Virus record (IMG/VR): IMGVR_UViG_3300043410_001129
Coordinates: 1-60,762 of that record
DNA: 60,762 nt
Reading direction: 5' to 3' (one strand)
Source of the DNA: a virus
Lineage: Duplodnaviria > Caudoviricetes
Part shown: positions 3,119-52,932 of the stretch, piece after piece
Layout of the letters: the number at the start of each line of letters is the position of its first letter
Numbering within the stretch: the stretch's first letter is position 1
Notes under the pieces: model-generated
Databases searched by the model: none
Told to the model about the DNA's origin: nothing
The model's input: the letters and a program-made list of their open reading frames with translations, nothing else
Translations under genes and position numbers: made by a program

Positions 3119-3149
3119 ATATTGCCGATCTGGGGTGGTTGGGTCGTCC
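3119..3149 (-). promoter_or_regulatory. GGACGAC-N18-CAATAT promoter, possibly giving a leaderless portal mRNA
   Basis: Motif and spacing are shared with six other sites. The -10 ends 6 nt before the portal ATG. Confidence 0.65.
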
Positions 3150-5267: not shown

Positions 5268-5690
5268 CTATGCCTGCGCGTCGAGCGGGTCGTGGGCGAG
5301 GTCTGGCTCGGATGCTGGCAGGTCTGCTGGCAGGTCCGAAGGGAAAGCATCAGGAATTGCTTGCAATTCCAGATGCTTAGGGCTGGCAGTGCTATCCTTC
5401 GGAGGAATAGCATCGCCGATTAGTTCTCGAAGCTGAGCTTTGCTCATCTTCGAGAGATCATGGTGGTGGTGAACGTGTTGTTCAGCGTAAGACGCTGAGA
5501 TTTCAGGCAAAACTTTTGAGAGTAAAACTCTCGATGCAGCGACTCTTGCCATCGTGTCCTTGCGATTTGGGTCGATTTTGCCTTCGGCAATGTCACCCAA
5601 CGCATCAATCGCGGCATGAGCGCGATGCAAGACCTTGCGCCTGAGTCTGCGCACTTCGTCAGCTGAAAGCTCGACAGACCTCGTGGCCAT
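5268..5690 (-). CDS. Probable terminase small subunit
   Basis: Upstream of TerL. AASRVLLSKVLP and DLSKMSKAQL segments are typical of TerS. GGAG RBS precedes MATRS. Confidence 0.65.
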   Translation of the reverse strand: MATRSVELSADEVRRLRRKVLHRAHAAIDALGDIAEGKIDPNRKDTMARVAASRVLLSKVLPEISASYAEQHVHHHHDLSKMSKAQLRELIGDAIPPKDSTASPKHLELQAIPDAFPSDLPADLPASEPDLAHDPLDAQA

Positions 5691-5718
5691 CACAAAAACT
5701 CCGTTTTCTACCATCGGC

Positions 5719-5750
5719 ACTTTAGCGTTGGATTTTTTTACACGTCGTCC
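5719..5750 (-). promoter_or_regulatory. GGACGAC-N19-TAAAGT promoter for the terminase operon
   Basis: Repeated motif. Overlaps hairpin element 1 of the early region. Confidence 0.6.
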
Positions 5751-5772
5751 CTGAAAGGGACTGAAGGGAATA
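5747..5772 (+). promoter_or_regulatory. GAA-triloop hairpin + TGAAGGGAATA element, copy 1
   Basis: GTCCCT-GAA-AGGGAC-TGAAGGGAATA. Confidence 0.65.
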
Positions 5773-5834
5773 AAGGGGAGGCAAATCGGCCAGTCCGATG
5801 CCTCGAAACCCTCTCTCCCACAGACATTGCGAAT

Positions 5835-5858
5835 GTCCCGAAGGGACTGAGGGGAATA
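5835..5858 (+). promoter_or_regulatory. GAA-triloop hairpin + TGAGGGGAATA element, copy 2
   Basis: GTCCC-GAA-GGGAC-TGAGGGGAATA, upstream of the first early gene. Confidence 0.65.
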
Positions 5859-5905
5859 GAAGCGAGGCCAATTCGGTCTCAACCAACCCCGAAAGGATTA
5901 CGATC

Positions 5906-6304
5906 ATGCTGAATACGATTCACCCCGTTCTCGTTGCTGAAGGCAACGTTGTGAAGCGCAAAGACGGTTCCACCGTTGCTCGTCCTTTGGCCATCTGCAC
6001 CGAAGGTGGCTTCTGCGTCAAAGTGAAGGGCGACTACGTCGCCGTCGATCCCATCGCTGCCAATCGTGTTTCGGTCTCCGACCGCAAGGTCACATTGGCC
6101 CGATACGCAAAGCTGGCTGACATTCAGCCGAAGGCTGAGAAGGTTCCTGCCAAGCCCGAAGCCAAGCCAGTCGCAAAGCGACTGACCAAGACGGTCAAGC
6201 CGAAGGCTAAGGCCGAAGCGACCGAAGCCCTTGGCTTCAGCAAGCAGTTCGGTATCAGCGAAGCTGATGCTCGCAAAATCCTCGCAATCCTGACTGGCAA
6301 GTGA
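5906..6304 (+). CDS. Early Lys/Ala-rich hypothetical protein
   Basis: AAAGGA RBS before MLNTIH. Basic PKAEK/PAKP stretch. Confidence 0.75.
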   Translation: MLNTIHPVLVAEGNVVKRKDGSTVARPLAICTEGGFCVKVKGDYVAVDPIAANRVSVSDRKVTLARYAKLADIQPKAEKVPAKPEAKPVAKRLTKTVKPKAKAEATEALGFSKQFGISEADARKILAILTGK

Positions 6305-6312
6305 GGTGTGTC

Positions 6313-6501
6313 ATGAGCAATCGCGAAGAACTCACCAATCGCGTCGACCTCCTTCAGGAGGTCGTTCGCACTCTCCGCTCAGATCGCAACTTCTGGCTTC
6401 GCCAGAAAGACTTCAAGCGTGTCGCTGACATACGTCGACGTCTAAAACACGCTGAAGAACGACTGGCGATGTGCCTCCACTACTTGCCAAGCGCAGCCTA
6501 A
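6313..6501 (+). CDS. Small early coiled-coil protein
   Basis: GAGGTG RBS, followed by a terminator. Confidence 0.7.
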   Translation: MSNREELTNRVDLLQEVVRTLRSDRNFWLRQKDFKRVADIRRRLKHAEERLAMCLHYLPSAA

Positions 6502-6508
6502 TCGCATA

Positions 6509-6537
6509 GGGCCACCCTTCGGGGTGGCCCTTTTTTT
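6509..6537 (+). terminator. Rho-independent terminator
   Basis: GGGCCACCC-TTCG-GGGTGGCCC-T7. Confidence 0.9.
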
Positions 6538-6568
6538 CGTTTCCACGTCCCATTACAGGAGCCTAATC

Positions 6569-6658
6569 ATGAGCGAGACTTTGCAGACCATTGCCGAAGG
6601 CATTGCCTTCAGCTGTTTCATGACCATGATCTTTGCCGTGTTCTTCATCGCGTTTTGA
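6569..6658 (+). CDS. 29-aa membrane peptide (MSETLQTIAEGIAFSCFMTMIFAVFFIAF)
   Basis: AGGAG RBS and a hydrophobic helix. Below the ORF-track cutoff. Confidence 0.55.
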   Translation: MSETLQTIAEGIAFSCFMTMIFAVFFIAF

Positions 6659-6668
6659 GGTCCACGAC

Positions 6669-6764
6669 ATGATCCACGACGACGACGTGTGGCCTCTCAT
6701 CAAGGTCACGGCTTTCACGACAGCCGTTCTGATGACCCTCATCTATATCGCCTTTACTCGTTAG
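6669..6764 (+). CDS. 31-aa membrane peptide (MIHDDDVWPLIKVTAFTTAVLMTLIYIAFTR)
   Basis: GAGGT RBS and a hydrophobic helix. Confidence 0.55.
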   Translation: MIHDDDVWPLIKVTAFTTAVLMTLIYIAFTR

Positions 6765-6789
6765 TCCCCGAAGGGGACTGAAGGGAATA
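6764..6789 (+). promoter_or_regulatory. GAA-triloop hairpin + TGAAGGGAATA element, copy 3
   Basis: GTCCCC-GAA-GGGGAC-TGAAGGGAATA. Confidence 0.65.
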
Positions 6790-6845
6790 ACTGTGCCTCG
6801 CCGATCAACGGCGGGGCTTTTTCTGTTACACGAAAGGATATTTCC

Positions 6846-7085
6846 ATGTTCAACGACATCACGGCTCTTCGAGCCATCTCTATTGCCGCTTACGTTTCCA
6901 GCACAATTATGACCTGCGTTGCTGTCCTCGACGACGCATGGCCTCAAGCCAGCTTCTGGGTTCTCACGTTGATCCTCAACGTGTTGATCGACCGCAACTC
7001 GGAGTCAACGACAATCCACCTCGTGATTACAAGCGACGAGCCAGCCACCATCACTGGCTACACTGTCCCGAAGGGTCACGAATAA
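6846..7085 (+). CDS. Small two-helix membrane protein
   Basis: AAAGGA RBS and two hydrophobic segments. Confidence 0.65.
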   Translation: MFNDITALRAISIAAYVSSTIMTCVAVLDDAWPQASFWVLTLILNVLIDRNSESTTIHLVITSDEPATITGYTVPKGHE

Positions 7086-7513
7086 TGCAAACCTTCATGC
7101 CCTATGTGACCTTCGCGACGAGTGCCAACTGCCTCGACAACAAGCGTCTCAACAAGCAAATCACCGAGTGTCGCCAGATCATGCGTGCCCTGGCACGCAA
7201 ACGTCTTGGCATGAAAGCAGGGTGGCAAAGCCACCCTGCGGTTCTCATGTGGGAAGGCCACCTCGGTTCGCTCCAAGCGTATCACAACTGTTGCGTTAGA
7301 GCGTGGTGGGACCGTGGCTACAACAGCCACACGATGCTCGCCATTCACGGATTGCACGACGACGACTTGCCGTCGTGGGTCGGAGACCTTCGCCTTCACG
7401 TCTCCCACCAAGCCAATCTGGTTCGCAAAGACCCAGACCACTACGGGCCGCTGTTTCCATACGTCGACCCGTCACTCCCCTACTACTGGCCAACACAAGG
7501 AGAAGCCAAATGA
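7085..7513 (+). CDS. Pyrimidine-dimer DNA glycosylase / T4 endonuclease V-like protein (MSMEG_6728 family)
   Basis: MQTFMPY, LDNKRLNKQITECRQI, WQSHPAVLMWEG, SHQANLVRKDP and PYYWP match the family pattern. Confidence 0.85.
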   Translation: MQTFMPYVTFATSANCLDNKRLNKQITECRQIMRALARKRLGMKAGWQSHPAVLMWEGHLGSLQAYHNCCVRAWWDRGYNSHTMLAIHGLHDDDLPSWVGDLRLHVSHQANLVRKDPDHYGPLFPYVDPSLPYYWPTQGEAK

Positions 7514-7833
7514 ACCACACCATCAAGACTGCCGACGAATTGCGTGACGCCTCTCACGAGTTTGCACGCCTCATTCAGAAATCACTCGAACAGATGGCAC
7601 CAATCTGGAAAGAGCGTGGCTACAGAGACGCCGACGTGTTGAAGGTCAGCACCTCTGCCCTTGGCAGCATGATCGGGATGATGTGCGGCACGACAGGCGT
7701 TGAGGACGAGGCTCATGTTCCAGGACTGATGGATGCCCTTAAGCCACTGGCTATCTCGTCTTACGAGAAAACCATGCTGGTCCTGAGCCTGACCTGCGAA
7801 GAAGAACTCGACGAAGAAACCACTGCCCACTAA
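7510..7833 (+). CDS. Hypothetical protein
   Basis: AGGAG RBS and ATGA overlap with the previous gene. Confidence 0.7.
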   Translation: MNHTIKTADELRDASHEFARLIQKSLEQMAPIWKERGYRDADVLKVSTSALGSMIGMMCGTTGVEDEAHVPGLMDALKPLAISSYEKTMLVLSLTCEEELDEETTAH

Positions 7834-7852
7834 CGCATTAGGAGACATTGCG

Positions 7853-8398
7853 ATGCAAGATATTTGCGACAACTTCGTTACCATCAAACACTCCGACCCC
7901 AAGTTCATTGCGAAAATCGTGAAGGACTTCAAGGATGGCTCGCTATTCGGCGGGCTTTACCCTCGGCCCAAGCATGTTCCCGAAGAACGTGATGCCTCTT
8001 GGAAGATCGGCAACTGGGGAGTCAGCCACGACGTCGGCATCGACCAAAGACTGTCGGGCCAACGCATCAACAGCTACGAGCTGGTCAACCCGAACTATGT
8101 GGCTCTCCGCTTCGAGACCAAGTTCGCACCGCCCATCTCCTATTACGAGAACCTGATGGGAGACTTCGACGCTGAGATCGACGCCATGTTCTTCGCAACA
8201 AGGGCCAAGGACGATCAGGACTACTGCGGCTCATACAACATGGGTCATTACGATGACCTCGACATCGTGAGTCGAACTCACAAGTGGGCCAAGACTCACA
8301 TCCCACCTGAAGTCGAGACGACTCTCGACATTGCCAAGCACTACGCAGACCGTGAGGACCAAGTCGAAGAGCAGATCAACCTGTCCCTCGTCTATTAA
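7853..8398 (+). CDS. DUF1281 / YubB ferredoxin-like domain protein
   Basis: WKIGNWG and FETKFAPP motifs. Confidence 0.65.
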   Translation: MQDICDNFVTIKHSDPKFIAKIVKDFKDGSLFGGLYPRPKHVPEERDASWKIGNWGVSHDVGIDQRLSGQRINSYELVNPNYVALRFETKFAPPISYYENLMGDFDAEIDAMFFATRAKDDQDYCGSYNMGHYDDLDIVSRTHKWAKTHIPPEVETTLDIAKHYADREDQVEEQINLSLVY

Positions 8399-8409
8399 GT
8401 GTATGTGTG

Positions 8410-8439
8410 TCCCCAACGAAGTTGGGGATGAGGGGAATA
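8410..8439 (+). promoter_or_regulatory. GAA-triloop hairpin + TGAGGGGAATA element, copy 4
   Basis: TCCCCAAC-GAA-GTTGGGGA-TGAGGGGAATA, upstream of the CobS-like gene. Confidence 0.65.
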
Positions 8440-8485
8440 TTGGGGCTGCCAATCGGCGGCCCCTTTTCTTTTGGAGGATCAACCG

Positions 8486-10492
8486 ATGCTGACTAACGAC
8501 GAAATCTCCGAGCGACTTTCCGTTGCTCGCAAAGAACCATTCAAGACACGACGGCGAAGCGTCGACTCGATCATTGGCGACATGATCAAGTCCGAACTTC
8601 TGGCGTCGCCACATTATGACGTGTCAAAAGTTGTCACCCACTCCCCGATCTGCGGCACAGGCCCAGGCCAACTCAGCGTTAGGCCGTGGCTGTCGTCTAT
8701 CCTGTTGCAGACCCCGCTTCCCGTAAGGGAAGGGCTGATCGCTCACCACCTGAGCGGCGGCAAGGTGGGAACATCGGTGTTCGACGTCTTGCAAGCCATC
8801 CTTGAACCGTCTAAAGTTGGCGTCACAGACACCTCAACCAAGACGGGCTACCGCTTCGGGTGGCACACGGACTTCAACCAACCTGACACTGAGGCATGGC
8901 TCTGGACCCACCTCGAAGCCAAGCCACTCACACCTATCGCAACTGTTACGGAGACGCCAATGGCATTGACCCCCATCGACAGAGTCATAGACGCCCACGA
9001 CCGAGTGTTTATCTACGGTCGCTCGAATGACATGACTATCGAGCAGAAAATTCTGCTGACTCACGGCATCATCGAATACCTGCGCAACCACGGTCTTCTT
9101 GACGGCGAAGTTCACACGACGAGTGACTTCACCGATGCTCGTTCACTCATCGAGTGCCGTGGCTATGACGAGCCAGACGTTTACGACCGCACTTTCGCAC
9201 CACTCACGGGCCATATCCGCGACGTTGTCGTGGAGGCCATCAAACATTTCACAAAGCACAAGGAGATTTCCATGACCACCATCAGCACCACCTCTGTCGC
9301 CCCCGCCTTCGACCCCACCGCCATGATCAAGATGGTCGAGCCGATGCTCGCCATGGCAACGGGTGGCACGGTCACCACGTTCGACGACGTCAAGTCTCTC
9401 GAGGCTCGAGCAACTGCGCTCGCCAACGAGAACGTCACCCTTCACGCCGACCTGATGGCGGCTCGCAAGGCTGCCGCTAGTGCAGCTGCCACACCAATGG
9501 TGGTCGGTGAGATCAAGCGTGGCGATGAGACGGTCGGCTTCCCGACTGGCAAGCTGGGCATCGCCAAGGCCAAGGATGTATTCAACATCAAGGGCAAGAT
9601 GGCTGAGCGCTTCGACTTCGATGTGCCCATGTTCGAGTGGGATGGCCCGCATCCTTTGGTGCCAAGCGTCGACACGGACTATGTGTTCGAGAAGAAGAAC
9701 CTTGCCCTTGCACTCGATGCGCTTGTGGCTGGCGATAACACATGGGTCTACGGCCACACTGGTTCGGGTAAGACCACGTTCGTCGAGCAGATCGCGGCTC
9801 GATTGGGCTGGCCCCTCATGCGAGTCAACGGTGACTCGGACATCTCGCGCTTCGAGTTGATCGGCAAGACAGACTTCAAGGATGGCGAGACCACGTTCAC
9901 TCCTGGTGCGCTGGTCACAGCGCTCGAGGAGGGATGCCTCCTGCTGTGCGACGAGTTCGATGTGACCCGTAGCGAGACGGCCTATGTCCTCAACCGTATG
10001 CTCGAGATGAAGGGCTTGCTCCTCCTCGAAGATGGCGGTCGGTTCGTTGCGCCTCACCCCATGTTCCGCATGGTTGCGGCATGTAACTCGAGGGGCAACG
10101 GCGACGAGTATGGAATTTACCCTGCGGTTCGCACTCAGAGTGCGGCGACTCGCTCTCGCTTCACCGTGTTCATCGAGCATGACTACCTGAAGGCTGAGCA
10201 GGAACGTGAACTGATCATCGCCAAGACCAACGTCGCCAAAGACATCGCCGATAAGTGGGTGCGCCTCGCCAACGAGGTTCGTGAAGCCTTCAAGAAGGGG
10301 CGCATCCTCGAGGTGGTCTCGCCTCGTGAAGTGCTGGCCGCTTGCACACGTTACCAGCGTCTGACTGTGCGGCTTGGCGATGAGAAGGAGGCGCTCAAGA
10401 TGAGCGTCGAGGCGGCTGTGCTGGCACGTTGCTCGAGTGCTGACCGAGCCGTCGTGGCTGAGATTGTCCAGCGCATCTTCGCAGTATCGTAA
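8486..10492 (+). CDS. CobS/MoxR-like AAA+ ATPase with a long N-terminal extension
   Basis: Walker A GHTGSGKT, Walker B LLLCDEFD, HPMFRMVAACNSRG and TRSRF arginine finger. Confidence 0.9.
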   Translation: MLTNDEISERLSVARKEPFKTRRRSVDSIIGDMIKSELLASPHYDVSKVVTHSPICGTGPGQLSVRPWLSSILLQTPLPVREGLIAHHLSGGKVGTSVFDVLQAILEPSKVGVTDTSTKTGYRFGWHTDFNQPDTEAWLWTHLEAKPLTPIATVTETPMALTPIDRVIDAHDRVFIYGRSNDMTIEQKILLTHGIIEYLRNHGLLDGEVHTTSDFTDARSLIECRGYDEPDVYDRTFAPLTGHIRDVVVEAIKHFTKHKEISMTTISTTSVAPAFDPTAMIKMVEPMLAMATGGTVTTFDDVKSLEARATALANENVTLHADLMAARKAAASAAATPMVVGEIKRGDETVGFPTGKLGIAKAKDVFNIKGKMAERFDFDVPMFEWDGPHPLVPSVDTDYVFEKKNLALALDALVAGDNTWVYGHTGSGKTTFVEQIAARLGWPLMRVNGDSDISRFELIGKTDFKDGETTFTPGALVTALEEGCLLLCDEFDVTRSETAYVLNRMLEMKGLLLLEDGGRFVAPHPMFRMVAACNSRGNGDEYGIYPAVRTQSAATRSRFTVFIEHDYLKAEQERELIIAKTNVAKDIADKWVRLANEVREAFKKGRILEVVSPREVLAACTRYQRLTVRLGDEKEALKMSVEAAVLARCSSADRAVVAEIVQRIFAVS

Positions 10493-14460: not shown

Positions 14461-14768
14461 TGGACGAGGACAAAGGGGCGCGTATTTACCTGTTTGTGTG
14501 CGATGCACTCAAGGAGAACCCAGACTTGCTTGGTTGGGTTCTTAAAGGGATCACAGATGGCATGGCCCTATCTGTAGAACAGGCAAGAAAAGATCAGGTA
14601 GATTGGGAGGTCATCGCAAGTATGGCAATGAACAAACGGCTGATGGACGGAAACGAGTTATTTCTTGCTGATAAGATTGACGAATTGAAGCCCCGCTCAT
14701 CTTTAAATTGGGGGTGGTATGTAGAAAAATTGCGCGGAATTGTGGCGAAGAAGCAGGAGAAAGAGTGA
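14457..14768 (+). CDS. Hypothetical protein (lower GC)
   Basis: Coupled ORF. Confidence 0.7.
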   Translation: MMDEDKGARIYLFVCDALKENPDLLGWVLKGITDGMALSVEQARKDQVDWEVIASMAMNKRLMDGNELFLADKIDELKPRSSLNWGWYVEKLRGIVAKKQEKE

Positions 14769-14962
14769 TGGACATTGTTGAACGGTTGCGGAATTTGGAA
14801 TGGATGATAGATCAAAAAGAACTTAACGAAGCCGCTGACGAGATTGAACGGTTGCGGGAGGCGTTGGAAGAAGTTGGTTCATATGTGGCAGGGGGTGATT
14901 GGCATTATATGAGTGATAAAACATTAGCCGTTGTTGACCGAACACTAGGGGAGAAAGAGTGA
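14768..14962 (+). CDS. DIVERL-family small protein 1
   Basis: MDIVERL...EAADEIERLR. Confidence 0.75.
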   Translation: MDIVERLRNLEWMIDQKELNEAADEIERLREALEEVGSYVAGGDWHYMSDKTLAVVDRTLGEKE

Positions 14963-15144
14963 TGACTGACATTGTTGAAAGGTTGGAGCGCGATCTTGCG
15001 CTTGGTTTATCTGCAAGTATTGGCGATACGAAGAAAGCCATCGACGAGATCAAACGATTGCGGAAGGCACTGGAACGGATCGTCGATTGCGAGGAAGAGT
15101 TAGACCCGCAGAGCTATGCGGAGATTGTTTTGAAGGGGAGGTGA
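14962..15144 (+). CDS. DIVERL-family small protein 2
   Basis: MTDIVERL...KAIDEIKRLR. Confidence 0.75.
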   Translation: MTDIVERLERDLALGLSASIGDTKKAIDEIKRLRKALERIVDCEEELDPQSYAEIVLKGR

Positions 15145-15147
15145 GTG

Positions 15148-15381
15148 ATGACCGACATTGTAGAACGGGACATTGTTGAACGGCTGGAGGACTGCGCGAC
15201 GTTTGGTGCGGAAGGTGCTGAAGCACTTTGTGGCGAAGCCGCTTACGAGATTAAGCGGTTGCTGAGCAACGCTAAACAGGATGCACAATACCTGTTGGCT
15301 TACCATCGTATCTGTCAGAAGCATGGCATTGCCCCGTCGTCATCCGACTTGGTTGCCGCACTGAAGGAGAACGAGCCATGA
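15148..15381 (+). CDS. DIVERL-family small protein 3
   Basis: MTDIVERDIVERL...EAAYEIKRL. Confidence 0.75.
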   Translation: MTDIVERDIVERLEDCATFGAEGAEALCGEAAYEIKRLLSNAKQDAQYLLAYHRICQKHGIAPSSSDLVAALKENEP

Positions 15382-15899: not shown

Positions 15900-16310
15900 A
15901 TGACAGATCACGAGAGTCTGGAGCAGCGGGTGGCGACGCTCGAGGCGCAGATGAGGATGATCTTACGGGAAATGGGAACTGAGAAGCTGGACCGTGACGT
16001 GGTGGCGTCGTTCGCGAGGATGACGCCACGGATGCACGGGGCCATGCAGTGCATACTGAATGGCATAGGCAACAGGGAGATTGCCGAGAGGTTTCATGTG
16101 CAGGAGACGACAGCCAAGGTCTATGTGCGGAGCATCGCCAAGAAGCTGGGGGTGAGGACGCGCAGTGAGATCGTGGCGAAGGCGCTTGCGACGTTTAAGG
16201 CGATGAGTGCCGATGAGTATTTGAGGTTGGCCAAGATCGAGAAGACTTGGTTCGAGGGTGGCGAGAAGTGGAGTGGCAAGGATGACGGAGAATTTTCTGG
16301 AGCTGATTGA
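15900..16310 (+). CDS. LuxR/NarL-type HTH DNA-binding protein with no sensor domain
   Basis: MTPR...GIGNREIAERFHVQETTAKVYVRSIAKKLGVRTRSE. Confidence 0.85.
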   Translation: MTDHESLEQRVATLEAQMRMILREMGTEKLDRDVVASFARMTPRMHGAMQCILNGIGNREIAERFHVQETTAKVYVRSIAKKLGVRTRSEIVAKALATFKAMSADEYLRLAKIEKTWFEGGEKWSGKDDGEFSGAD

Positions 16311-17325
16311 GAAGGGTGGTGTCTGGCATTGCCATGGGTGGGTGAACGGTGAGCGCATCAGGCGAAGCACCAAGACCAAGAACAGGCTTGAGGCTGAGGA
16401 GCAGAGGGTCAAGTGGCTGAGAGATGGTGAGGTAGGGGTGAGTCCTGGGAAGGCGGGACAGACTCTGAGGGATGTGATTGGGGCGTATCGGAACAGGCCG
16501 CGCAAGCGGCCTTATACTTATGACACGTTGAAGGCGCTGGACCGGATCGAGCGGGGCATGGGCGACGTCAAGCTGACGGCGCTCGATGCGAGGCGCGTCA
16601 ATGCGTGGGCGGACAAGGAGTATGACGAGACCAATCGGTTCAGCAGGATCAAGGGTCTGACGCTACTGAGGGCGGCGTGCCGGTATGGTGCGAGGATCGG
16701 GATGCTGAGCAGTGTGCCGCTCATTCATACGGAGCGGATCGAGAGCAAGCGTCTGAGGTTCTTGGAGAGGGCCGAGCTGAAGGTGTTCCTCGACGAATGT
16801 CGACGGGAGAGCGAGGCGCTGTGGGCGCTGTGCCAATTCATGGCGTTCACGGGTGGGCGACGGGGCGAGATCATTGCGCTGAGGTGGGACGAGATTGATT
16901 TCGAGCGGAGGCAGGTCACGTTCCAGAGCTTCAAGGGCAGGGATGGCAGGACCAAGAAGCGGACTGTGCCGCTGAATGAACCGGCGTTGGAGGCGGCGAG
17001 GGCGATGCTCAAGTTCAGGATCGTGGGAGCCAAGGACGATGTGGTGTTTAAGGGTCCGAGCGGGAAGGCGTGGAGGAGGAGGAAGGGGACCAAGCAAGCG
17101 ACGCATCCGATTGGGTGGAAGCGGGTGGTCGAGAAGTGTGGGCTGGTGGATTTCCATCCGCATGATCTGAGGCACACGTTTGCCAGCATGTTGCGGCGCG
17201 AGAAGCGGATGGAGTTGGATCGTATTGCCGAGTTGTTGGGTCATGCCACGCTAGAGATGACACAGATTTATGCGCACCTGATCGTGGAAGATTTCAGAGA
17301 GGACGTTGACAGCCTACGTCTTTAG
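16282..17325 (+). CDS. int: Tyrosine recombinase / integrase
   Basis: Catalytic residues in TGGRRGEI, HDLRHTFAS, LLGHA and IYAH, plus an N-terminal arm-binding-like segment. Confidence 0.93.
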   Translation: MTENFLELIEKGGVWHCHGWVNGERIRRSTKTKNRLEAEEQRVKWLRDGEVGVSPGKAGQTLRDVIGAYRNRPRKRPYTYDTLKALDRIERGMGDVKLTALDARRVNAWADKEYDETNRFSRIKGLTLLRAACRYGARIGMLSSVPLIHTERIESKRLRFLERAELKVFLDECRRESEALWALCQFMAFTGGRRGEIIALRWDEIDFERRQVTFQSFKGRDGRTKKRTVPLNEPALEAARAMLKFRIVGAKDDVVFKGPSGKAWRRRKGTKQATHPIGWKRVVEKCGLVDFHPHDLRHTFASMLRREKRMELDRIAELLGHATLEMTQIYAHLIVEDFREDVDSLRL

Positions 17326-17333
17326 AGTATTGT
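17306..17333 (+). promoter_or_regulatory. Sigma70 promoter TTGACA-N16-TATTGT for the putative sRNA
   Basis: Consensus -35 in the integrase 3' end. The predicted +1 (about 17340) coincides with the first hairpin base. Confidence 0.55.
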
Positions 17334-21982: not shown

Positions 21983-22013
21983 ACTTTATGTGGCGAGGGG
22001 TGGGGCGTCGTCC
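21983..22013 (-). promoter_or_regulatory. GGACGAC-N18-TAAAGT promoter for the hydrolase/lysis operon
   Basis: Repeated motif with conserved spacing. Confidence 0.65.
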
Positions 22014-22677: not shown

Positions 22678-22807
22678 TACAAGACCCTCGGTATCGGTAA
22701 GGATGTTGCAGTGCCGGTGTAGCTTTTTTGCTACAGGTCAAGATGCTTCGTCAAGGTGTGTGTTTCATTTTATTCACAGGCCCCCCTCGAAAGGGGGGCC
22801 GGACGTC

Positions 22808-23024: not shown

Positions 23025-23146
23025 TAACCCCTCTCGGGCGACGCCTCAAAGAATCTTATGAGAGATGCGACGGAGCTTCCGCCAGTCCGCCCCCCGTTGG
23101 GACGGGGGGCTGGCTCTCTCAAGGAACGTAAGCCCGAGAGGGGTTA
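23025..23146. repeat. Long nested inverted repeat (structured element)
   Basis: Perfect 15-bp IR (23025-23039 / 23132-23146) enclosing further nested stems. Confidence 0.75.
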
Positions 23147-25159
23147 AACTTCCCCGGTCCACTTCTTCACCGCATAAATTGGAAGCTGAAGGTCACGAGC
23201 GATGACGCTTGCGCCCTTGCCTTCGGCGCTCATGCGCTCTGCTTTCTGGCGTGGTGACTCACTCGAGACGACATACAGGCGACCGTCCTCGCGCTCCATG
23301 AACGCGATCAGCGAGTCCATGTGATTGTCCGTCAGCTCGCGCACCTTCCCGTATGACCACTCGAAAGCGGCCAACAGACGGTCGGTTGGTTCCTCGCGCT
23401 TCATGTAGATTTCCATGTTGGCGCGAACTGGATCGAGGAACTTGCCACGCTTCGAGACTGCTTTGGCTTCGTCCTCGTAGAGCTGGACGATCCTGATCTG
23501 CTGCTCGATCACCGAGAGCTGGTTGGTCGAGCCAGCTTCCATGCCGGAGGAAGTCTGAGCGTCCTGCGGTTTGTTGGCGTGGTGCAGGATGATCACCGAG
23601 ATGCCAGCGTTGCGGAGCTTCAGGGCCAACTGGTTCATGGGCGCCCACCCTTCCGCGCTGTTCTCCTGCATCCCTGGGTATGCTGAGCGCACCGTGTCAA
23701 TCACGACGACTTCGGGTGCCGTCGCCTCGATCCACTTCTGGAGCTTGGTCAGGCCAGCTGGCTCCTTCAGGTTCATCTCGGCGACCTCCTGCTGGAGGGC
23801 GGGGGAGATGATCTTCAGGCGCTTATGGGTTGTGCCGAATGACGAGAGGAACTTCTGCATCCGGTGAGCGATGGTCGAGCGTCCGTTCTCGAAGTCGACG
23901 TAGGCCACCGTGTGCGGGCGGCTGATCGTGAATGGTCCGACTGACTGACCACGGGCCAGGTGCCAGAGGACCAAGAGGGTGAGCCACGACTTGCCGTGAC
24001 CGGTGTAGCCGTAGACCTGGACGATGGATGGGTGCTTGAGGAATGGGTCGACGGCATAGACTTCATCACGGAGCGTCAGCATCAACGACTCGAGCTGGTC
24101 GTCCGTGAATGGTGTGAGAGGGGTGACAGGTTCTGTCACCTCCGATGTTCCCGAAACAGATTTCGGGAACATCTCCTCCTTGCGTTCCCGCTTGCCGTGT
24201 TCGCGCTCGTCCTTATGGCGGATCGAACGGAGGGTCGCTTTCCATTCGCGATCATGGAGGCGGCTCTCGAAGAACTGGTCCATGAACTCATAGACCCGAG
24301 AGCCAACCTCTGCGTCGTCGCATCCTGCGGCGACCAACTCACCGATGAAGCGGGTGAGGAGAGAGCCACGACCTGAGCCGTTCGGGAGCTTCCCGCCATG
24401 TTCGATGACGCGCTGCTCGGCGAAGCGTTGTGCGCCGAGGGCGTCTCCCTCTGACTGGGCACGGACATGGGTAAGGTCCAGGCTTGAGAAGATTTCGCTC
24501 GGAGACTTACCGCTGTCCACCACGGGGTCGATCCCCCGCATCATGGGCTTCGTGCCTGTCCACACAGGCGCCTCACTCAGGTCATCCGTGTAGGCATATT
24601 CCCAATCGTATTGGTGAGTGACCACCTTCTGTGCGTTGAGTTTTACTGAGGGTGGCAGGACGACATAGCCACCGTCACCACGGAAATCGAGACCGTCGAC
24701 GGTTGGCCAGTCAGGATCGTGTAGAGCGTTCGCGCCCACCTTATTCCCGAAGCGGGAGCCTGCACCTGGGTGCGAGAAGTAATAGTGCTTCCCGCGTGTC
24801 GTCTTAACCGCGAACCCTGTTACGAGTCCATTGGCCGAGCAGTAGTCTAGGGCGGCTTGATTGTCGGCATCGACAACGACAACGCCAGAGACTGCGCCGG
24901 TAGCAAGGCCAATGTTGAAGAGCTTCACACGTCCGCCTGATGGCGTTGGTGCGCCGTTCTCGAACCAGTCCGTGACTTCTTCGTAAGTAGGCTGGCGCAC
25001 CTGATACTCGCGCCACGAATTGAGTGGCACCTTGCTCTCGATGCTGATCGGAAAAACCGAGAAGCCTTTATCCAGATATTCTAATGCAGCTTCGTAGAGT
25101 TGATCGCGGAGTGCTGCGACCTTCGAGGGGGTATCCGTAGTCGTATCCGTTTGCATCAA
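23144..25159 (-). CDS. Bifunctional primase-polymerase fused to a RepA/AAA_25 helicase
   Basis: GFSVFPI, NIGLATG, VVVDAD, GKHYYF and DFRGDGGYVVLPPS, then GYTGHGKS, VVVIDT and HHANK. Confidence 0.92.
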   Translation of the reverse strand: MMQTDTTTDTPSKVAALRDQLYEAALEYLDKGFSVFPISIESKVPLNSWREYQVRQPTYEEVTDWFENGAPTPSGGRVKLFNIGLATGAVSGVVVVDADNQAALDYCSANGLVTGFAVKTTRGKHYYFSHPGAGSRFGNKVGANALHDPDWPTVDGLDFRGDGGYVVLPPSVKLNAQKVVTHQYDWEYAYTDDLSEAPVWTGTKPMMRGIDPVVDSGKSPSEIFSSLDLTHVRAQSEGDALGAQRFAEQRVIEHGGKLPNGSGRGSLLTRFIGELVAAGCDDAEVGSRVYEFMDQFFESRLHDREWKATLRSIRHKDEREHGKRERKEEMFPKSVSGTSEVTEPVTPLTPFTDDQLESLMLTLRDEVYAVDPFLKHPSIVQVYGYTGHGKSWLTLLVLWHLARGQSVGPFTISRPHTVAYVDFENGRSTIAHRMQKFLSSFGTTHKRLKIISPALQQEVAEMNLKEPAGLTKLQKWIEATAPEVVVIDTVRSAYPGMQENSAEGWAPMNQLALKLRNAGISVIILHHANKPQDAQTSSGMEAGSTNQLSVIEQQIRIVQLYEDEAKAVSKRGKFLDPVRANMEIYMKREEPTDRLLAAFEWSYGKVRELTDNHMDSLIAFMEREDGRLYVVSSESPRQKAERMSAEGKGASVIARDLQLPIYAVKKWTGEV

Positions 25160-25349
25160 AGTCCTCGCAAATAAATTGGTCCAATGAAAGGTCAGGCCAC
25201 TCCGTCAATAGTTTGTCCAACATGCCAATGGTCATGGCACCGTTCTTCACCCAACGATAGGGAGCGGTCCTCGACACGCCGATACGCCTGGCTACCAATG
25301 CGGGGCCACCGAGGTGGCGGATCAGTTTCTGTATGTCGAGATGTCTCAT
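25068..25349 (-). CDS. Cro-like HTH protein
   Basis: LGGPALVARRIGVSRTAPYRW. First gene of the leftward unit. Confidence 0.75.
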   Translation of the reverse strand: MRHLDIQKLIRHLGGPALVARRIGVSRTAPYRWVKNGAMTIGMLDKLLTEWPDLSLDQFICEDFDANGYDYGYPLEGRSTPRSTLRSCIRISG

Positions 25350-25393: not shown

Positions 25394-25424
25394 AAACTAC
25401 TCCAAGCCTCTTGCAGTGTCGTCC
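25394..25424 (-). promoter_or_regulatory. GGACGAC-N18-TAGTTT leftward promoter
   Basis: Repeated motif upstream of the Cro-like and primase genes. Confidence 0.6.
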
Positions 25425-25438
25425 TTCGACGGCTATAT
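25410..25438 (+). promoter_or_regulatory. Alphaproteobacterial-type sigma70 promoter CTTGCA-N17-CTATAT
   Basis: Near match to the rhizobial CTTGAC-N17-CTATAT consensus. Upstream of the recombination operon. Confidence 0.7.
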
Positions 25439-25470
25439 CTTGGTTACTGATACCGAGACGGAGATAACCA

Positions 25471-29934: not shown

Positions 29935-30211
29935 TTTGAACGTGGTCAAGATCGGCAAGGCCGCACCGGACGATCAAGTGATCGAACAAGCCGAGTTCAT
30001 TTTGGAACAGGCCAAGGCTGGCAACATGAGAAGCCTGTTGTGGGTAAGCGAAAATCTCGACGGCACTTATACCCACGGGATCACTAGGCGGACAGACAGC
30101 TTCAAATGCCTGGCGTATCTCGACAGGTTGCGGCACCGCGTCAACCTGTGGTTGGACGCGGATAGTCATGATCCGATTGATTGGGTGGATGAGGGCGACA
30201 GCGAGGATTAA
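29915..30211 (+). CDS. Hypothetical protein
   Basis: AAGGA RBS. Converges on the giant gene. Confidence 0.7.
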   Translation: MSSGENSLNVVKIGKAAPDDQVIEQAEFILEQAKAGNMRSLLWVSENLDGTYTHGITRRTDSFKCLAYLDRLRHRVNLWLDADSHDPIDWVDEGDSED

Positions 30212-33200
30212 GACCCGCTGAAGCCACCACCGAAGCCACCACCAAATCCACCACCGAAGCCGCCTCCCTTCGCGTTCATGCGATTGGAGGCGCTACTGTT
30301 TGCGCGTTCCCCCGCCACATAGTTCGTGACGTTCTCGCGGAAGGGCTTCACCTGACCGGCGAACGGGACACGAGAGGCCACGTCACGGACTGCTGAGCGT
30401 TCGCGGTAGTTGGTCCCGTCTTCACCAATCAGGGCATGTTCGATGCCGCCAGCCGTCTCGAAGGCAGACTGGGCGAGACCCCATGTCGGGCCAAGCACGA
30501 AGGACGCTGCGCGGTTCATGCCATACTGGCCGTTGTCGAGAGACTCGCCGACCTGGAAGAGCATGTCGGAGAACAGGCCGAAGCCGCCCATGGACATGAA
30601 GCCGTCGATATACCAGCCGAGGAAGGTGTCGAGGTCGACGTTCGTGCCCATGACGTTGACGGTTCCGGGCGTCTTGCCCTTGAAGCCAAACTGCTCGGCG
30701 ATCTTCTGGTAGGAGCGGACGCGAGGTGCGAACTCGCCCGTTCCCTTCTCGTCACCACCACGACCCTGGATCACGTCCTTCATGTAGATGGCGCCCATGC
30801 CGGAGCCAGCTCCGAGGGAGAGCATCATCGCGAGCGGTGCGACGTTGCCTTCCTTGGCTTCCTTCAGAACCGTGCCACCAAGTTTGGACATCATCAGGGG
30901 GAACGACTTCAGCTGCCAGGCGAGCATACCCCACGGAGTCTGCGCCCAGACTGGGACGTCGTTCGGGTTCGGCGTGAAGATCGACTCGTTGGCGAACTTG
31001 ATGATCGCCGCACGGACGTCGTCGTTGTGCTGGACCTGCGTCAGATCGCCGAACGACTTGGCAGGATCGGTCGCGTAGTCACCGAGGCCGTAGTGATCCA
31101 GGAAGCGCTTGGCCTGCCGGAAGCTACGGTTCTGGGAGACCGAGTCTGCGCGGTAGTTCTGCTGCGCCTTCTCGATCATTGCCTGCATCGCGTAGTAGCC
31201 GTGGATGCCAGCGATCTCGCGCTGCATGTTGGTCCATGGGGTCAGAAGCGATGCGTTGAAGAACGCATTGGTGCGGCGACCGTCGAACACACCAGCGGCC
31301 TGGCCACCGTAGAGGGAGGCGTAGCGCTCGTGGATCAGGTTCTCGATGGTGACGCCAATGTTGCGGATGGCGTCCCGGTAGGTTGGGTCGGTCGCGTAAG
31401 ACTTCAGCGCCTTGTAGGTCGCCTTCATCGAGCCGGAGCGGATCGCGGGCATGGACAAGTCCGAGATCGAGGTCAGCACGGTGAAGGGCAGGAGGGTTGC
31501 GCTGTTGAAGTTGCGCAGACCACGGCTCACCGCATAGGCGCCTTCCTGACCAACGCCGGTGTAGACCCGCTTGTTCTGGATGGCGCGGAAGGTGGCCTGC
31601 ATGTGGTCGAGTTCCGAGCGGGTGATGCCGTTCGGCATGTCTGCCATAGCCTGAGCGATGGCCATTGCCCGCTTCTCGAAGGTCTTGCCGCCGTCGACGT
31701 CGGTGATGCCGGACTGCTTTCGGACAGACATGATCGCGTCGAAGGCGTCCTGTGCGGTGCCGCCTTCTGCCAGACGCTTGCGAGCTGCATTGATGGCTGT
31801 GCCTGCCTGCATCTCGTTCATGGGGATCATGACCGTTTCATGCGTGATCTCGCGCATCACCTCGTTCTCTGGGCCAATGGCCTTCGAGGTGTTGGTCAGG
31901 ATTTTCCGGGTGTTGAGCAGGGTCCGACCAGCCGAGTCGCCGAAGGTGGCGACCTGGACGTAGTCGTAATAGCCGTGGTTGTTGTGACCGAACTGCTTGG
32001 CGAAGGCGATGCGCTTCTCGGCAGTGTCGGCATACTTGGTCACGATGGCCGTGATGTCGCTGTTCAGGAACGGCTCCAACTCGCGCAGAGCTTCGCGATC
32101 ACGATCAAGGCGGATCATGCGGCTCATTTCGTGATCCATGACGGGGGCACGAGAGCCACCGGCAACAGGTGCGTGAACGACGCCGTCGTCATCGGTCAGG
32201 CGGGCAAACACCTTCTCGGCGCGGGACACGGCTTCTGCACGAGAGAGAGGCTCGCGCATCTCGTCTTTCAGGGCGTCACGCTGGAAGTGATTGGCCAGAC
32301 CTTCGATGACACCAGACGGATTGCGGTGCATCGCTTCCACGTCCCAGTGCTGCGGGAAATAGTCGCCGATGGTGCCGACGCGGATGTTGGCGTCGTTCAA
32401 GAGGCGCTCGCGATAGTGGCTGAAGAAGCCCTTGAGTGCTTCTGCGGCCTGCTGTTCCTCGGGGGCCAAGCGGCGGATGGCTTCGTCGCCACGACGCAGG
32501 GCAGAGGCGATGCGCTTGTGGGAGTCTGGCGTGATGTGCTGCTGGTGCGTGATGCCGACGGTGAGGTCTGACACCTTGCGGAGCCAATCACCCAGTGCGC
32601 CCTTGGCGTCTGGCAGATTGTGGAGCTGCTGGACGATGGGGTTCAGGTGCTTCGAGGTGTCAGCGTGGTGGCGCTCGTAGTAGCCGGTGCCATGCTCGGG
32701 TGCGATCCAGTCGGCGAGCCAACGGGCGCCAGCGAACTCGCGCAGACGATCTGAGTTGGAGCGCAGTTGCACGGGAGCCGAGAACTCCTTGAGACCTTCG
32801 GCTGCCTTCACGTCCTTGCGGGCGATCTTGCGCAGGAGGTCTGCCATCTTGGAGGAGCCACCGCCTGCCTCGACCCACGAGGACATGACGTTGCCAAAGC
32901 GACTGGCGCTGAAGGGTTCGTCGCTGTTCATGGCAGCGTCGAACAAGGCGCCGTTCAACGACATCTTGGGAGTGTCGCCGTTCGGGATCACAGACTTGTA
33001 GAAGCCATCCGAGGAGCGGCTGTATTCCGTGGCCTCGAGCATGTGCTTGACCTGGGCCGGGGTCTCGAAGGCGACGATGATGTCATGCGGAACACCAGCG
33101 CCGTTGATCGGGTGGGTGTCCGTGGTGCGCAGACCGTCATAGCCAAGTTCACGCAGGAGGTCGGTGATCATGTCCTCTGCGGTCTTGGTGTAGGTGATCT

Positions 33201-36200
33201 CGCCGCCATACATGCGGTTGCCGACGCCGGTGACGTCCGAGATTTCCTGGATGAGCGCATCATAGAGCTGGAGGCCAGTCGTTCTGACGAAGCCGTTCTC
33301 GTCGATGTCGCCCATGATCGAGCGTTCGAAGCCGGGATCGGTCCAGCCCTTCTCGACCATCTTGTCGATCAGCTGCTGGATGTGGTGATCAGCCAGGCCG
33401 TCCACGTCCTGGTGGCCGATGATGTGGTCGGTTCCAGTGCGGAAGTCGAAGACCTTCTCGGCGTTCATCGAGATCGGGAAGGTGCGGGAGTCGAGCTTGT
33501 ATTTGCCGAGGTCCGCGTTGAGGCGGGCGTATTCGGACTCGAGTTCCTTCACCTGCTTCTTGACCCAGGTGGTCTCAGCCTTGTTGACGAGGCCAGTGCC
33601 GATGTCGACAGACTTCATTCCCTTGGACTGCTCGAGCCAACCGGCCATGTCGCTCAGCTGAGAGACGATGTCGTCGCGCTGACGCATCATCGACTTCACG
33701 TTGGCCAGCTCGTTGTCGCTGAGTTTCAGCGAGCGCAGCTCGAAGTCGAGGTTGCGTGAAGCCGTGCTGGTGCCCTGACGGGCGAACTCGATGGCGTGCT
33801 TGAACGACTCAGTGGTGTAGAAGCCGTATCCGAAAGAGCCAGCTCCGTTGGGGGTGAACATCACGACGGTCTCACCGTCGCGCATCAGACCGCCAGCGGG
33901 TGTGCCGTGCCAGAGCTGAATGATCTCACCGTCCTGAGTGTAGAAGGAGTGGTGGTTCTTCAGACGAGCGAGCTGCTCGGGGTCCATCTGGCGCAGGACT
34001 TTGCGCAGGTCTGTCTCCAGGCTCATCATCGGAGCGCCGGAGAGGATCGACTCGAGGCCAATGTCACGGGTTGCGCTGGTGGTGCGACCGAACATGTCGC
34101 CATACCAAGTGAGCTGGCGCATCACCTGGCGCATGTCCTTGTTGCCGATCAGGCGGTTGAACAGGTAGGCGAGGGCTTCCTTGACATTGTCGAAGATGCG
34201 CTCGATGCCAGTCTTCAGGCGGATACCTTCGAGGGAGCCTGAGACGTGCAGTTCCATCAGGTCGCCACGGGCAACGCGCTCGGCCAGGTGCATCGCGATG
34301 GACTGGGCGATGTATTCCTCGGCCTGCTTTTCGAAGGAGAGGTCGGCGTATTCATTGCGCACCGTTGCGGCGATCTTGTCCTTCGCGATGGCGAAGGCGT
34401 CGACCATGATCTTGCGATCCTCTTCGGACAGCATCGTGCGGGAGAGCAAGTGACCGGCCTCGTGGACCACGTCGAACGGATTGGCGTTCTCACGCAGACC
34501 GATGGCCAGGCGACGGACGGTCGAACGCAGTTCCTTGAAGACCGGATCGCTCAGGTCTGCGAACACGGCGTTGGCGTTCGCGGGGATTTCCTTGCCTGCC
34601 ATCTTGTAGAGCGTGCCGATGGGCAGAACTTCCGCTTCGCCGACGTGCATCTTCGCTTCGTCGTTCAGCAGGTTCAGGACGCGGTAGGCCAAGGTGCGGG
34701 CGTTGCGCTCGACCTCGGGGTTGTTGTGGTTGATCGGGCGGAGCAGCGCCTTCCACGACTCGGGTGCGTTGGCGGGGATGCCAACTTCGAGAGTCGTGCC
34801 GTCGCGGTGCGTGATTTCTGTTTCGACTGCCTTGCCAATGCGGGACTCGTAGAGGTCCAGCAGGGAGCCAAGGTCGCGGCGCTGGGAGAGTGCGGCTGAA
34901 TAGAGGTCAGCCTGCGCACGATCTGCGGATGCGATTGCCTTGTGCAGACGCGAACGCAGCTCTGCGTCGGGCAGGGCTGCGGTCTCGGGGTCGATCTTGA
35001 CGTTCGGGGTTTCGAACTTGGCGCGATAGCGGTCGGCCAGCTCGTTGGCCAGCTCGATGCCACGCACCGTGCTGGGGCCTTCCTGACGGAACTGCGCCAG
35101 GAGGTCCATGCCGGAGAGCTTGGCAGGAGACATACTGTCGACAGCGGTCGCACGCTTAGCGCCAGACTCGGCACGCGAGACAGTGCGTTCTGCCTTCTCC
35201 TTGGGAGTGGCAGGCTTGTTGACGGCGCGTTCGGCGAGGACGTCCGCCTTGGCCTGTTCGGTCTTTGCAGCGCGGCGTGCCTTGTCGAGGCCAGCGTAGC
35301 GGCGAGACGCTTCACTGCCTGTGCGCTCTGGCATAAGCGGGTTCTTCGGCAGGATTTTGTAACCAGTCTGACGCTGATAGGCGCTCTCGAGCAGGTTGAT
35401 GTAATCAGCGTAGGCGTTCGAGAGTTTGTTGCCGACGCGGTAGGCTTCCATCATGAACTCTGGATTATCGAGTCCGCCCGCTGCGATGTGGGTCATGTCG
35501 ATAATCTGCATCCCGGAGATGCGGGACTCGGCCTGAGCAGTGATGGGGTCAGTGATCAGGTTGCCAAGCTCCATGTCGCGGTATTGCTCGGCGATCAGCT
35601 TGTCGAGTTCGGTCTCGGCGGCACCGGTCTTGTAGGCTTGGTAGAACTCGTGGGCCTCGCGGATCGCGGTGCGGATTTGGCGCAAGCGGTCGGTCACGGG
35701 TTCGTGGCCAGCTGCACGCGGGAAGAGCCAACTCGTGTTGTTGTATTTGGTGAGGACGAACATGAGCTGCTGCGCGTCGTTGATCGCCTCGAGGGCGGCA
35801 ACGGGGTCGGCAGAGTTCAGGCCACGGTCGAGTTCCTCGGCACGCTGAGCGACACGGCGCATCTGGCCTTGGGTCAGCTCGGCGTTCTTCAGCTTCTTGC
35901 CGGTGAGTCCAGCTTCACGCGGCTGGATGTAATCAACGGCCCAGCGGTTAGCGATGTCCTCGTCGGGGATGATCTTCTGGAAGAGGTGGACGATCTCGCC
36001 GGGGGCTTGCCACGGGTCTTTGAAAGCCTTGATGACGTTGGCGAACCGTTCAGCGATGCCACCCCAGAGGCCGGAGTGCGTGCGGAACGGAGTCACGTCC
36101 TCGCGGTCAACGAACGACATGAACAGGTTGGCGAAGAGTTCCTGTGGATTGTCGAAGACGCCTGGAACAACGTCGCGACCCTTGAGGAACTTGGAGAGTT

Positions 36201-39854: not shown

Positions 39855-39885
39855 AAAATACGAGTGGGAAGGGGGACGGTCGTCC
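39855..39885 (-). promoter_or_regulatory. GGACGAC-N18-TATTTT promoter for the giant gene
   Basis: Repeated motif, embedded in the hairpin AAGGGGGACG-GT-CGTCCCCCTT. Confidence 0.65.
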
Positions 39886-52901: not shown

Positions 52902-52932
52902 ACATTGCACGGTGGTCCGTGGGTTGTCGTCC
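52902..52932 (-). promoter_or_regulatory. GGACGAC-N18-CAATGT promoter for the head operon
   Basis: Repeated motif in an intergenic gap. Confidence 0.65.

Follow-up and report, generated by a model that had tools for sequence, protein, structure and literature searches.

Hairpin elements that resemble start signals recur across a family of marine phages

Four small hairpins, each followed by the fixed sequence TGARGGGAATA and a second GC-rich stem, had been picked out in an earlier note on a 60,762-nt marine phage sequence (the window, meaning the whole stretch analysed), which raises the question of what such a signal is for and what reads it. The window is a complete temperate podophage of the CRP-810 type. 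We first sought to determine whether the elements are as the note described, and they are: all four lie at the reported places, in intergenic DNA and on the + strand, with stems of 5-8 bp, the third overlapping the stop codon of a 31-aa ORF (6669-6764). The features are as follows.

5738-5746 (+), 5' flank of element 1 (TTACACGTC), of the family-wide ACRCGC type (alignment consensus nACnCGC, 4-5 nt before the stem); it overlaps GTCGTCC, the complement of the GGACGAC box of the leftward promoter
5747-5761 (+), element 1 hairpin, GTCCCT-GAA-AGGGAC, 6 bp with a GAA loop (25.9 bits in the covariance model)
5762-5772 (+), element 1 tail, TGAAGGGAATA, a T-rich linker plus G-run
5778-5804 (+), element 1 second stem-loop (GAGGCA..GCCTC), no T-run
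5835-5847 (+), element 2 hairpin, GTCCC-GAA-GGGAC, 5 bp, 88 nt after element 1 (26 bits)
5848-5858 (+), element 2 tail, TGAGGGGAATA
5864-5880 (+), element 2 second stem, GAGGCC-AATTC-GGTCTC, with one G-T wobble and no T-run; the RBS and ATG of gene 1 (5906-6304) follow
6764-6778 (+), element 3 hairpin, GTCCCC-GAA-GGGGAC, 6-7 bp (with a possible outer A-T pair, 6763-6779), starting in the stop codon of ORF 6669-6764 (29.8 bits)
6779-6789 (+), element 3 tail, TGAAGGGAATA
6795-6825 (+), element 3 second stem (6795-6817), an intrinsic-terminator-like hairpin of 9 pairs with one T-G wobble, plus TTTTTCTGTT; gene 6846-7085 follows
8410-8428 (+), element 4 hairpin, TCCCCAAC-GAA-GTTGGGGA, 8 bp (16.3 bits)
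8429-8439 (+), element 4 tail, TGAGGGGAATA
8442-8473 (+), element 4 second stem (8442-8463), an intrinsic-terminator-like hairpin of 9 pairs with one T-G wobble, plus TTTTCTTTTG; the CobS-like AAA+ gene 8486-10492 follows
23144-25159 (-), Prim-Pol (AEP primase) fused to an AAA_25 RepA-like helicase, the only template-directed polymerase recognised in the genome

The tail motif TGARGGGAATA has 4 exact hits in the window, all on the + strand; at up to 1 mismatch there are 6 hits against 0.69 expected, a number reached in 0 of 100 shuffles, and the same pattern read backwards gives 0 hits. A repeat search returned the four elements as one 32-nt direct-repeat family. The first hairpins are not intrinsic terminators, because they are followed by TGARGGG rather than a T-run; only the second stems at 6795 and 8442 score as such. 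A covariance model built from 36 family members scores only these four elements in the window at E below 0.05, although all four were in the training set, and the next hit has an E of 0.21. DNA folding gives z-scores from -1.7 to -3.6 for the + strand and similar values for the - strand. Rfam returned 4 weak hits in 5500-8700, all far below the gathering threshold, and blastn of 5600-8600 against GenBank phages found no match.

To test whether the element is shared by related phages, we ran covariance model R1 over 86 sources (956 kb, both strands). At E<=1 it gives 61 hits in 37 of the 86 sources, including the cultured phage CRP-810; 60 hits are on the strand of the rightward operon and 1 on the other, and 36 of the hits were training rows. 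Four further hits, all on that strand, lie in a Poseidonocella prophage and two MAG contigs, and a plain-pattern control gave 36 against 1. In 52 of 54 distinct hits, an RBS plus start codon lies 20-145 nt downstream. Of these hits, 23 sit at the divergent operon head, where 27 heads show no sigma70-like rightward promoter (best scores below 6 bits). Within a phage the copies share stem and tail, whereas phages differ from one another, which points to a phage-specific reader.

We then asked whether selection acts on structure, as the note had suggested, and this is supported. In the alignment, 86.5% of cells are paired against 69% in shuffles (0 of 500 reach it), and 58 cells changed on both sides against 19 expected; on 57 distinct hits the figures are 83.7% against 66.2%, and 98 against 34. 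Stems are perfect over 4-8 bp with 3-nt loops in 55 distinct hits, with a pyrimidine 5' arm and a purine 3' arm. The inner four pairs are Watson-Crick in 227 of 228 cells with no G-U, although the lack of G-U partly reflects how the seeds were chosen, because a perfect stem of at least 4 pairs was required. By contrast, 6 of the 7 second stems of the window and L007 carry a G-T wobble. Loops are GAA in 32, AAA in 20 and other in 3 of 55. In 5 of 29 listed operon heads the stem has only 3 pairs, TCC-GAA-GGA; that motif is the CCGAAGG DNA mini-hairpin, which is far more stable as DNA than as RNA (PMC13037366).

Because the early promoters of coliphage N4, read by its virion RNA polymerase, are also small DNA hairpins with a 3-nt loop and a stem of about 5-7 bp, we compared the two layouts. 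Counting from the loop centre, T is present in 33 of 55 hits at +7 and 28 of 55 at +8, and G in 32 of 55 at +11, 44 of 55 at +12 and 34 of 55 at +13; this is sharper than when aligned on the stem end, where the maximum is 35 of 55. These counts come from sequence alone, without mapped transcript 5' ends. N4 promoters place the loop centre at -11, before a G start (PMC4496689). In both systems several co-oriented copies head one block of genes and the genome encodes a giant virion protein. However, the purine loop of N4 (-11G, -10G) is on the template strand (PMC4496689), whereas here, as the note had pointed out for the GAA loops of the window, the loop is on the RNA-like strand; this holds for GAA or AAA in 52 of 55 hits, and the template strand would carry TTC or TTT. 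N4 hairpin promoters also depend on supercoil-driven extrusion and on SSB. Further, the phage is of a temperate type.

The note also recognised no RNA polymerase gene, and our searches agree. There is no PF00940 match, although this profile was silent in the control genomes too, and no sigma region 2 was found. The note had proposed structure prediction on the 3202-, 764-, 612- and 511-aa virion proteins to look for a polymerase, and the idea of a polymerase among them is not supported. In N4 the reader is a T7-like polymerase domain inside the 3500-aa virion protein. Here the 3202-aa protein has no DxDxD or RxxxK..YG motif, and the internal virion proteins have none either. It matched nothing among PDB sequences, and a Pfam search of four segments at E up to 10 gave only a weak DUF3990 hit. 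Its nearest Atlas clusters carry ART-PolyVal and LPD domains, and the model of its C-terminal 863 aa (residues 2340-3202, the only part folded; pLDDT 63.5) is almost all helical, with T7-type core or ejectosome proteins as its best but weak Foldseek matches (E 6e-3 to 0.1) and no polymerase. The protein looks like a polyvalent ejection protein. The 764-, 511- and 612-aa proteins are low-complexity, coiled-coil-like and have no family hit.

Together, these data only partly support the interpretation in the note, of a hairpin or cruciform early promoter or an entry signal. The label "early" is unproven; the phage is of a temperate type, and a sigma70-like promoter region lies at about 25.4 kb. 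The promoter reading remains the leading one, with a probability that we put at roughly 0.4. In this view, the elements are copies of a strand-specific DNA signal, shared by the CRP-810-type family, that marks the start of each expression unit of the rightward operon (small genes, endonuclease V-like, CobS/CobT-like). Each unit has the short conserved flank (ACRCGC type), the mini-hairpin with its GAA or AAA triloop, a 3-4 nt T/A-rich linker and a G-run starting 11-12 nt from the loop centre. The hairpin would be recognised as DNA, the strands would open in the linker, and synthesis would start on the G-run and run rightward; the second stem would then become the 5' RNA stem-loop of the new transcript, and at two window sites would also act as the terminator of the upstream unit. 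Our analysis establishes the anatomy of the element, its conservation across the family, the covariation, the strand bias, the position before genes and the absence of a recognisable phage RNA polymerase or sigma factor. That the signal acts as DNA, that initiation occurs at the G-run, and that the reader is either host RNA polymerase guided by a phage-specific factor (injected or early) or an unrecognised phage enzyme, are inferences.

Several findings weigh against this reading beyond the missing reader and the opposite loop strand. The elements carry no sigma70-type -35 or -10, and no such pair fits the tail or flank. In the window, 2 of the 4 elements are followed within 3-16 nt by a strong terminator that a transcript started at the G-run would have to pass; across the family this holds for 5 of 31 internal copies. 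In 6 loci a sigma70-like promoter (TTGACT-18-TATACA or TTGACA-17-TACATG) lies 27-41 nt upstream of the CobS-proximal copy, and the element could therefore simply lie in a 5' UTR.

Because the phage encodes an AEP Prim-Pol (PF09250) fused to an AAA_25 helicase (PF13481), we considered whether the elements might instead be single-strand initiation (ssi) signals, a reading that we regard as unlikely but that is the only one for which the genome encodes a candidate reader. The hairpin would fold in single-stranded DNA when the region is unwound or transcribed, and the primase would bind the conserved flank and the hairpin base and start a primer beside it, as RepB' does at ssiA/ssiB of IncQ plasmids. 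The best solved-structure sequence match of the helicase part is RSF1010 RepA (1g8y, E 0.0084, weak), and both replicons encode an AEP-type primase and a RepA-like helicase. As described in two papers, rather than from an alignment, RSF1010 ssiA is a 40-nt site whose hairpin (nt 7-27) is capped by CCGAAGG, whose 5' six nucleotides are bound specifically, and at which the primer starts at T32 just 3' of the hairpin (PMC8567376, PMC13037366). In sequence, the elements share a conserved 5' flank, a C-GAA-G cap (32 of 55 hits; about a third of the family uses AAA), strictly Watson-Crick stems and a conserved 3' tail. However, ssiA and ssiB form one inverted pair on opposite strands within an origin, whereas here there are 2-4 direct copies, 60 of 61 hits on one strand, tied to gene starts and confined to one operon. 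No iterons or AT-rich origin features were seen beside them in the window, and a G-run template start would require a pyrimidine-initiated primer on the + strand.

An RNA element in the 5' UTR or intergenic RNA is about equally unlikely. In a nut-like version, a flank and hairpin in the nascent RNA would load a factor that lets host RNA polymerase read through the operon's terminators; alternatively, it could be a processing or stability signal. This reading needs no phage polymerase. As in the nut sites (boxA-boxB) of lambdoid phages, a conserved flank precedes a short hairpin with an all-purine loop, a pyrimidine 5' arm and a purine 3' arm, just after the operon head and between genes, with some internal copies ahead of terminators. 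The layout is two-part, with a flank conserved across the family and a phage-specific hairpin and tail. Copies lie after stop codons and before the terminators at 6795 and 8442, and the operon holds further + strand terminators at 6508, 12795 and 13186. The sigma70-like promoters in 6 loci and the second stems, which tolerate G-U as RNA stems do, fit as well. Gene 1, the first after the tandem head copies, encodes a small, lysine-rich protein that looks like a nucleic-acid binder; its predicted fold (pLDDT 68) has a beta domain, a disordered lysine-rich linker and two helices, with no significant PDB match (best E 0.19). By contrast, the absence of G-U from the 228 inner-pair cells, the triloop in place of the GNRA-like purine pentaloop of boxB, which is bound by an arginine-rich N protein, and 3-pair stems that would be unstable as RNA argue against it. 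No rightward promoter is visible upstream of the head copies in 27 heads, a strict terminator follows only 5 of 31 internal and 0 of 23 head copies, and no family hit for an N-like protein was found among the early proteins.

A selfish or neutral REP- or MITE-like repeat, or a packaging or nicking site, is very unlikely: the elements are short intergenic palindromic repeats and elements 1 and 2 lie next to the operon that holds the terminase gene, but positions are conserved across phages whose TerL is only 46-55% identical to that of the window, stems covary, the strand bias is 60 to 1, spacing to downstream genes is regular and copies lie up to 2.7 kb from the terminase operon.

CRP-810-type phages are reported as a globally distributed marine family with 251 related uncultured genomes and prophages in SAR11, Poseidonocella and Sphingomonadaceae (PMC11288001). 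How they are transcribed is undescribed; the words promoter, hairpin and RNA polymerase do not occur in that paper, and we found no description of the element in print. The family carries a conserved, covarying hairpin signal with a spacing like that of N4 promoters and a cap like that of IncQ priming sites, yet without the enzyme that reads either. Either a known mechanism has an unrecognised reader, or hairpin DNA is used in a new way to start or control expression; because CRP-810 is cultured, the question is open to direct test. An improbable but not excluded extension is a class of hairpin promoters that works without any phage-encoded RNA polymerase. A stable mini-hairpin on the non-template strand would hold the DNA open, and host RNA polymerase, redirected by an injected polyvalent protein (with an ADP-ribosyltransferase-like domain) or by a small early protein, would start at the G-run; alternatively, the Prim-Pol itself would make the first RNAs. 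Either would be a mode of transcription initiation not described for bacteria or their temperate phages, present in an abundant family of marine phages.

An intramolecular triplex, a G-quadruplex and pairing of the tail G-run with the C-arm were considered by eye only. An exact scan of IMG/VR for GGGAYTGARGGGAATA returned 40 contigs, each with a single hit and none with a preceding hairpin, and these are chance hits. Finally, alignment of the leftward promoter shows that the GTCGTCC box next to element 1 belongs to that promoter and not to the element.

We first placed the DNA among known phages. The 60,762-bp sequence is a complete virus record with terminal repeats, and its large terminase is 50% identical to that of Roseobacter phage CRP-810 (OR671924.1). 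Gene order also matches that of CRP-810:

5906 to about 17.5 kb, rightward: an operon of small genes and CobS/CobT-like genes
23144-25159, leftward: a Prim-Pol/helicase, within a leftward block
about 25.5-30.2 kb, rightward: a second rightward block
30208-39816, leftward: a giant gene, within a long leftward structural block that also holds internal proteins, capsid, tail, portal and terminase

CRP-810-type phages are described as a new, mostly integrase-bearing marine family (PMC11288001); the words 'promoter', 'hairpin' and 'RNA polymerase' do not occur in that paper.

The observation in the earlier note, that four GAA-triloop hairpins with a fixed tail lie between 5747 and 8439 in this genome, held: all four hairpins and their tails are present and in place. 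The tail motif TGARGGGAATA occurs exactly four times, always on the + strand; with up to one mismatch there are 6 hits against 0.69 expected, and 0 of 100 shuffles reach 6. A repeat search recovers the four elements as one 32-nt family. Each tail is followed by a second stem, and at 6795-6817 and 8442-8463 that stem, together with its T-run, scores as an intrinsic terminator. Elements 1 and 2 lie 88 nt apart in the divergent gap before gene 1 (5906-6304), element 3 begins in the stop codon of a 31-aa ORF, and element 4 lies between ORF 7853-8398 and the CobS-like gene (8486-10492).

We next sought to determine whether the element is shared by relatives of this phage. CRP-810 carries GTCCC-GAA-GGGAC before gp04 and before cobS, and an imperfect copy at the operon head, although its tail differs from the one described here. 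Terminase-anchored loci from IMG/VR show the same design on the strand of the rightward operon: a pyrimidine-rich 5' arm, a GAA or AAA loop and a purine-rich 3' arm, followed by a short linker, a G-run and a larger second stem. For example, locus L007 (TerL 78% identical) has three copies of TCCCC-AAA-GGGGA with the same tail as our phage, and locus L009 has three copies of AACCCC-GAA-GGGGTT, the first two again 88 nt apart.

An alignment of 36 elements shows clear covariation: 86.5% of cells are paired against 69% in shuffles (0 of 500 reach that value), 58 cells changed on both sides against 19 expected, and all slid controls are lower. A covariance model, R1, finds 61 hits at E<=1, 36 of them training rows, in 37 of 86 sources; 60 hits are on the operon strand and 1 is on the other. 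The model finds 4 more hits, all on the operon strand, in a Poseidonocella prophage and two MAG contigs. On 57 distinct hits the inner four pairs are Watson-Crick in 227 of 228 cells with no G-U, and the pyrimidine is always on the 5' side, although the seeds had been chosen for perfect stems of at least 4 pairs. The best non-member hit of R1 in this genome (12.9 bits, E 0.21) is a GC-rich hairpin of the same C-arm/G-arm design, GCCCCCCT-CGAA-AGGGGGGC, at 22781-22800 in a gap of the leftward replication block. Another small hairpin lies at 5657-5674 (+) and, in many family members, in the 5' end of the first leftward gene (its first 10-20 codons in relatives), but its loop orientation varies and it is therefore not the same class.

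Of 54 distinct hits with enough flanking sequence, 23 of them head copies and 31 internal, 52 have an RBS and start codon 20-145 nt downstream. Counted from the loop centre in 55 distinct hits, T dominates at +7 and +8 (33 and 28 of 55) and G at +11 to +13 (32, 44 and 34 of 55). This pattern is sharper than when counted from the stem end, indicating that the G-run is placed relative to the loop. In sequence terms, this is the spacing of N4 promoters, whose loop centre is at -11 (PMC4496689). A 5' flank of ACRCGC type lies 4-5 nt before the stem in most copies of all subgroups. By contrast, stem and tail are uniform within a phage and differ between phages.

To ask which protein might read such a signal, we searched for polymerases and sigma factors, and found no RNA polymerase. 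A six-frame search returned no PF00940 match, although the control genomes were also silent. There was no sigma region 2, and only two weak HTH matches to region 4. The 3202-aa protein has no Pfam or PHROG hit beyond a weak DUF3990 match, and neither it nor the 764-, 511- and 612-aa proteins contain a DxDxD or RxxxK..YG motif. The 3202-aa virion protein (30208-39816, - strand), which has 20 homologues of 2850-4108 aa, carries two HExxH motifs (residues 1169 and 1785) in similar sequence contexts and an ADP-ribosyltransferase-like stretch near residue 2000 (a weak DUF3990 hit). Its nearest Atlas clusters carry ART-PolyVal and LPD domains, and its C-terminal 863 aa are predicted to fold as a helical domain whose best, weak matches are T7-type core or ejectosome proteins. 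The early proteins are orphans except for an endonuclease V-like protein. The only template-directed polymerase recognised is the Prim-Pol/AAA_25 protein, whose helicase part is most like RSF1010 RepA among solved structures (E 0.0084).

We then weighed whether the element acts as DNA or as RNA. Four features argue for DNA: the C-GAA-G cap is the mini-hairpin motif, which is far more stable as DNA than as RNA (PMC13037366); stems of only three pairs occur in 5 of 29 listed heads; the first hairpin lacks G-U, while 6 of the 7 second stems in our phage and L007 carry a wobble; and the same phages close their terminators with TTCG loops. Four features argue for RNA: the flank-plus-hairpin layout; the terminators just downstream of elements 3 and 4; further terminators in the operon; and a conserved sigma70-like promoter (TTGACT-18-TATACA or TTGACA-17-TACATG) 27-41 nt upstream of the hairpin element that precedes cobS in the CRP-810 subgroup, found in six loci (L001, at 1690-1725, and the matching places in L064, L065 and L066; L070 and L072). 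Against a simple 5'-UTR role, no sigma70-like rightward promoter is seen in 27 operon heads.

Taken together, we favor a DNA-level, promoter-like initiation signal with N4-like spacing and an unidentified reader, with a rough probability of 0.4. The structure, conservation, strand bias and position of the element are established here by sequence analysis, whereas its action as DNA, initiation at the G-run and the nature of its reader are inferred. The interpretation in the earlier note, a hairpin or cruciform early promoter or an entry signal, is partly supported. The element does not qualify as an N4 promoter on two tested features, the strand that carries the loop and the cognate polymerase. 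Two rivals remain live, though each is less likely: an IncQ ssi-like priming site for the Prim-Pol, for which the inverted-pair arrangement of the IncQ ssi family is lacking, and a nut-like RNA element. We found no description of such elements in print: the CRP-810 paper does not mention them (PMC11288001), and a partial full-text literature search on the cap motif in phage hairpins returned as relevant only the mini-hairpin review and the RepB' paper.

The genome also carries a second, minus-strand-only signal class, GGACGAC-N18-YANNNT, with 5 hits against 0.26 expected (0 of 100 shuffles reach 5):

3119-3149, - strand: GGACGAC-N18-YANNNT
21983-22013, - strand: GGACGAC-N18-YANNNT
25394-25424, - strand: GGACGAC-N18-YANNNT
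39855-39885, - strand: GGACGAC-N18-YANNNT
52902-52932, - strand: GGACGAC-N18-YANNNT
5719-5750: operon-head copy, with N19 and a start codon 4 nt after the -10-like hexamer

The five hits lie before the portal gene, a replication-block gene, the HTH/Prim-Pol block, the 3202-aa gene and a tail-region gene. In 26 distinct relatives' heads the same box is followed by TAANNT and then by an ATG 4-6 nt later, which looks like a leaderless leftward promoter with an unusual -35 box. At 25411-25439 (+), a sigma70-like TTGCAG-17-TATATC heads the second rightward block and faces a small gene (25161-25349, -) whose product looks, by eye only, like an HTH regulator; the GGACGAC box lies within the spacer on the other strand, and this arrangement may be the immunity switch. 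The strongest sigma70-like match in the whole sequence by simple scoring is TTGACA-16-TATTGT at 17306-17333 (+), at the end of ORF 16258-17325, which sits, by position alone, where CRP-810 has its integrase. Further, three tandem small ORFs at 14768-15380 (+) begin with the same M(T)DIVERL motif, share an EI(E/K)RLR motif and look like paralogous repeats. Finally, 6001-10000 is the only stretch with negative GC skew (-0.10 and -0.06), while the rest of the genome is positive regardless of gene direction.
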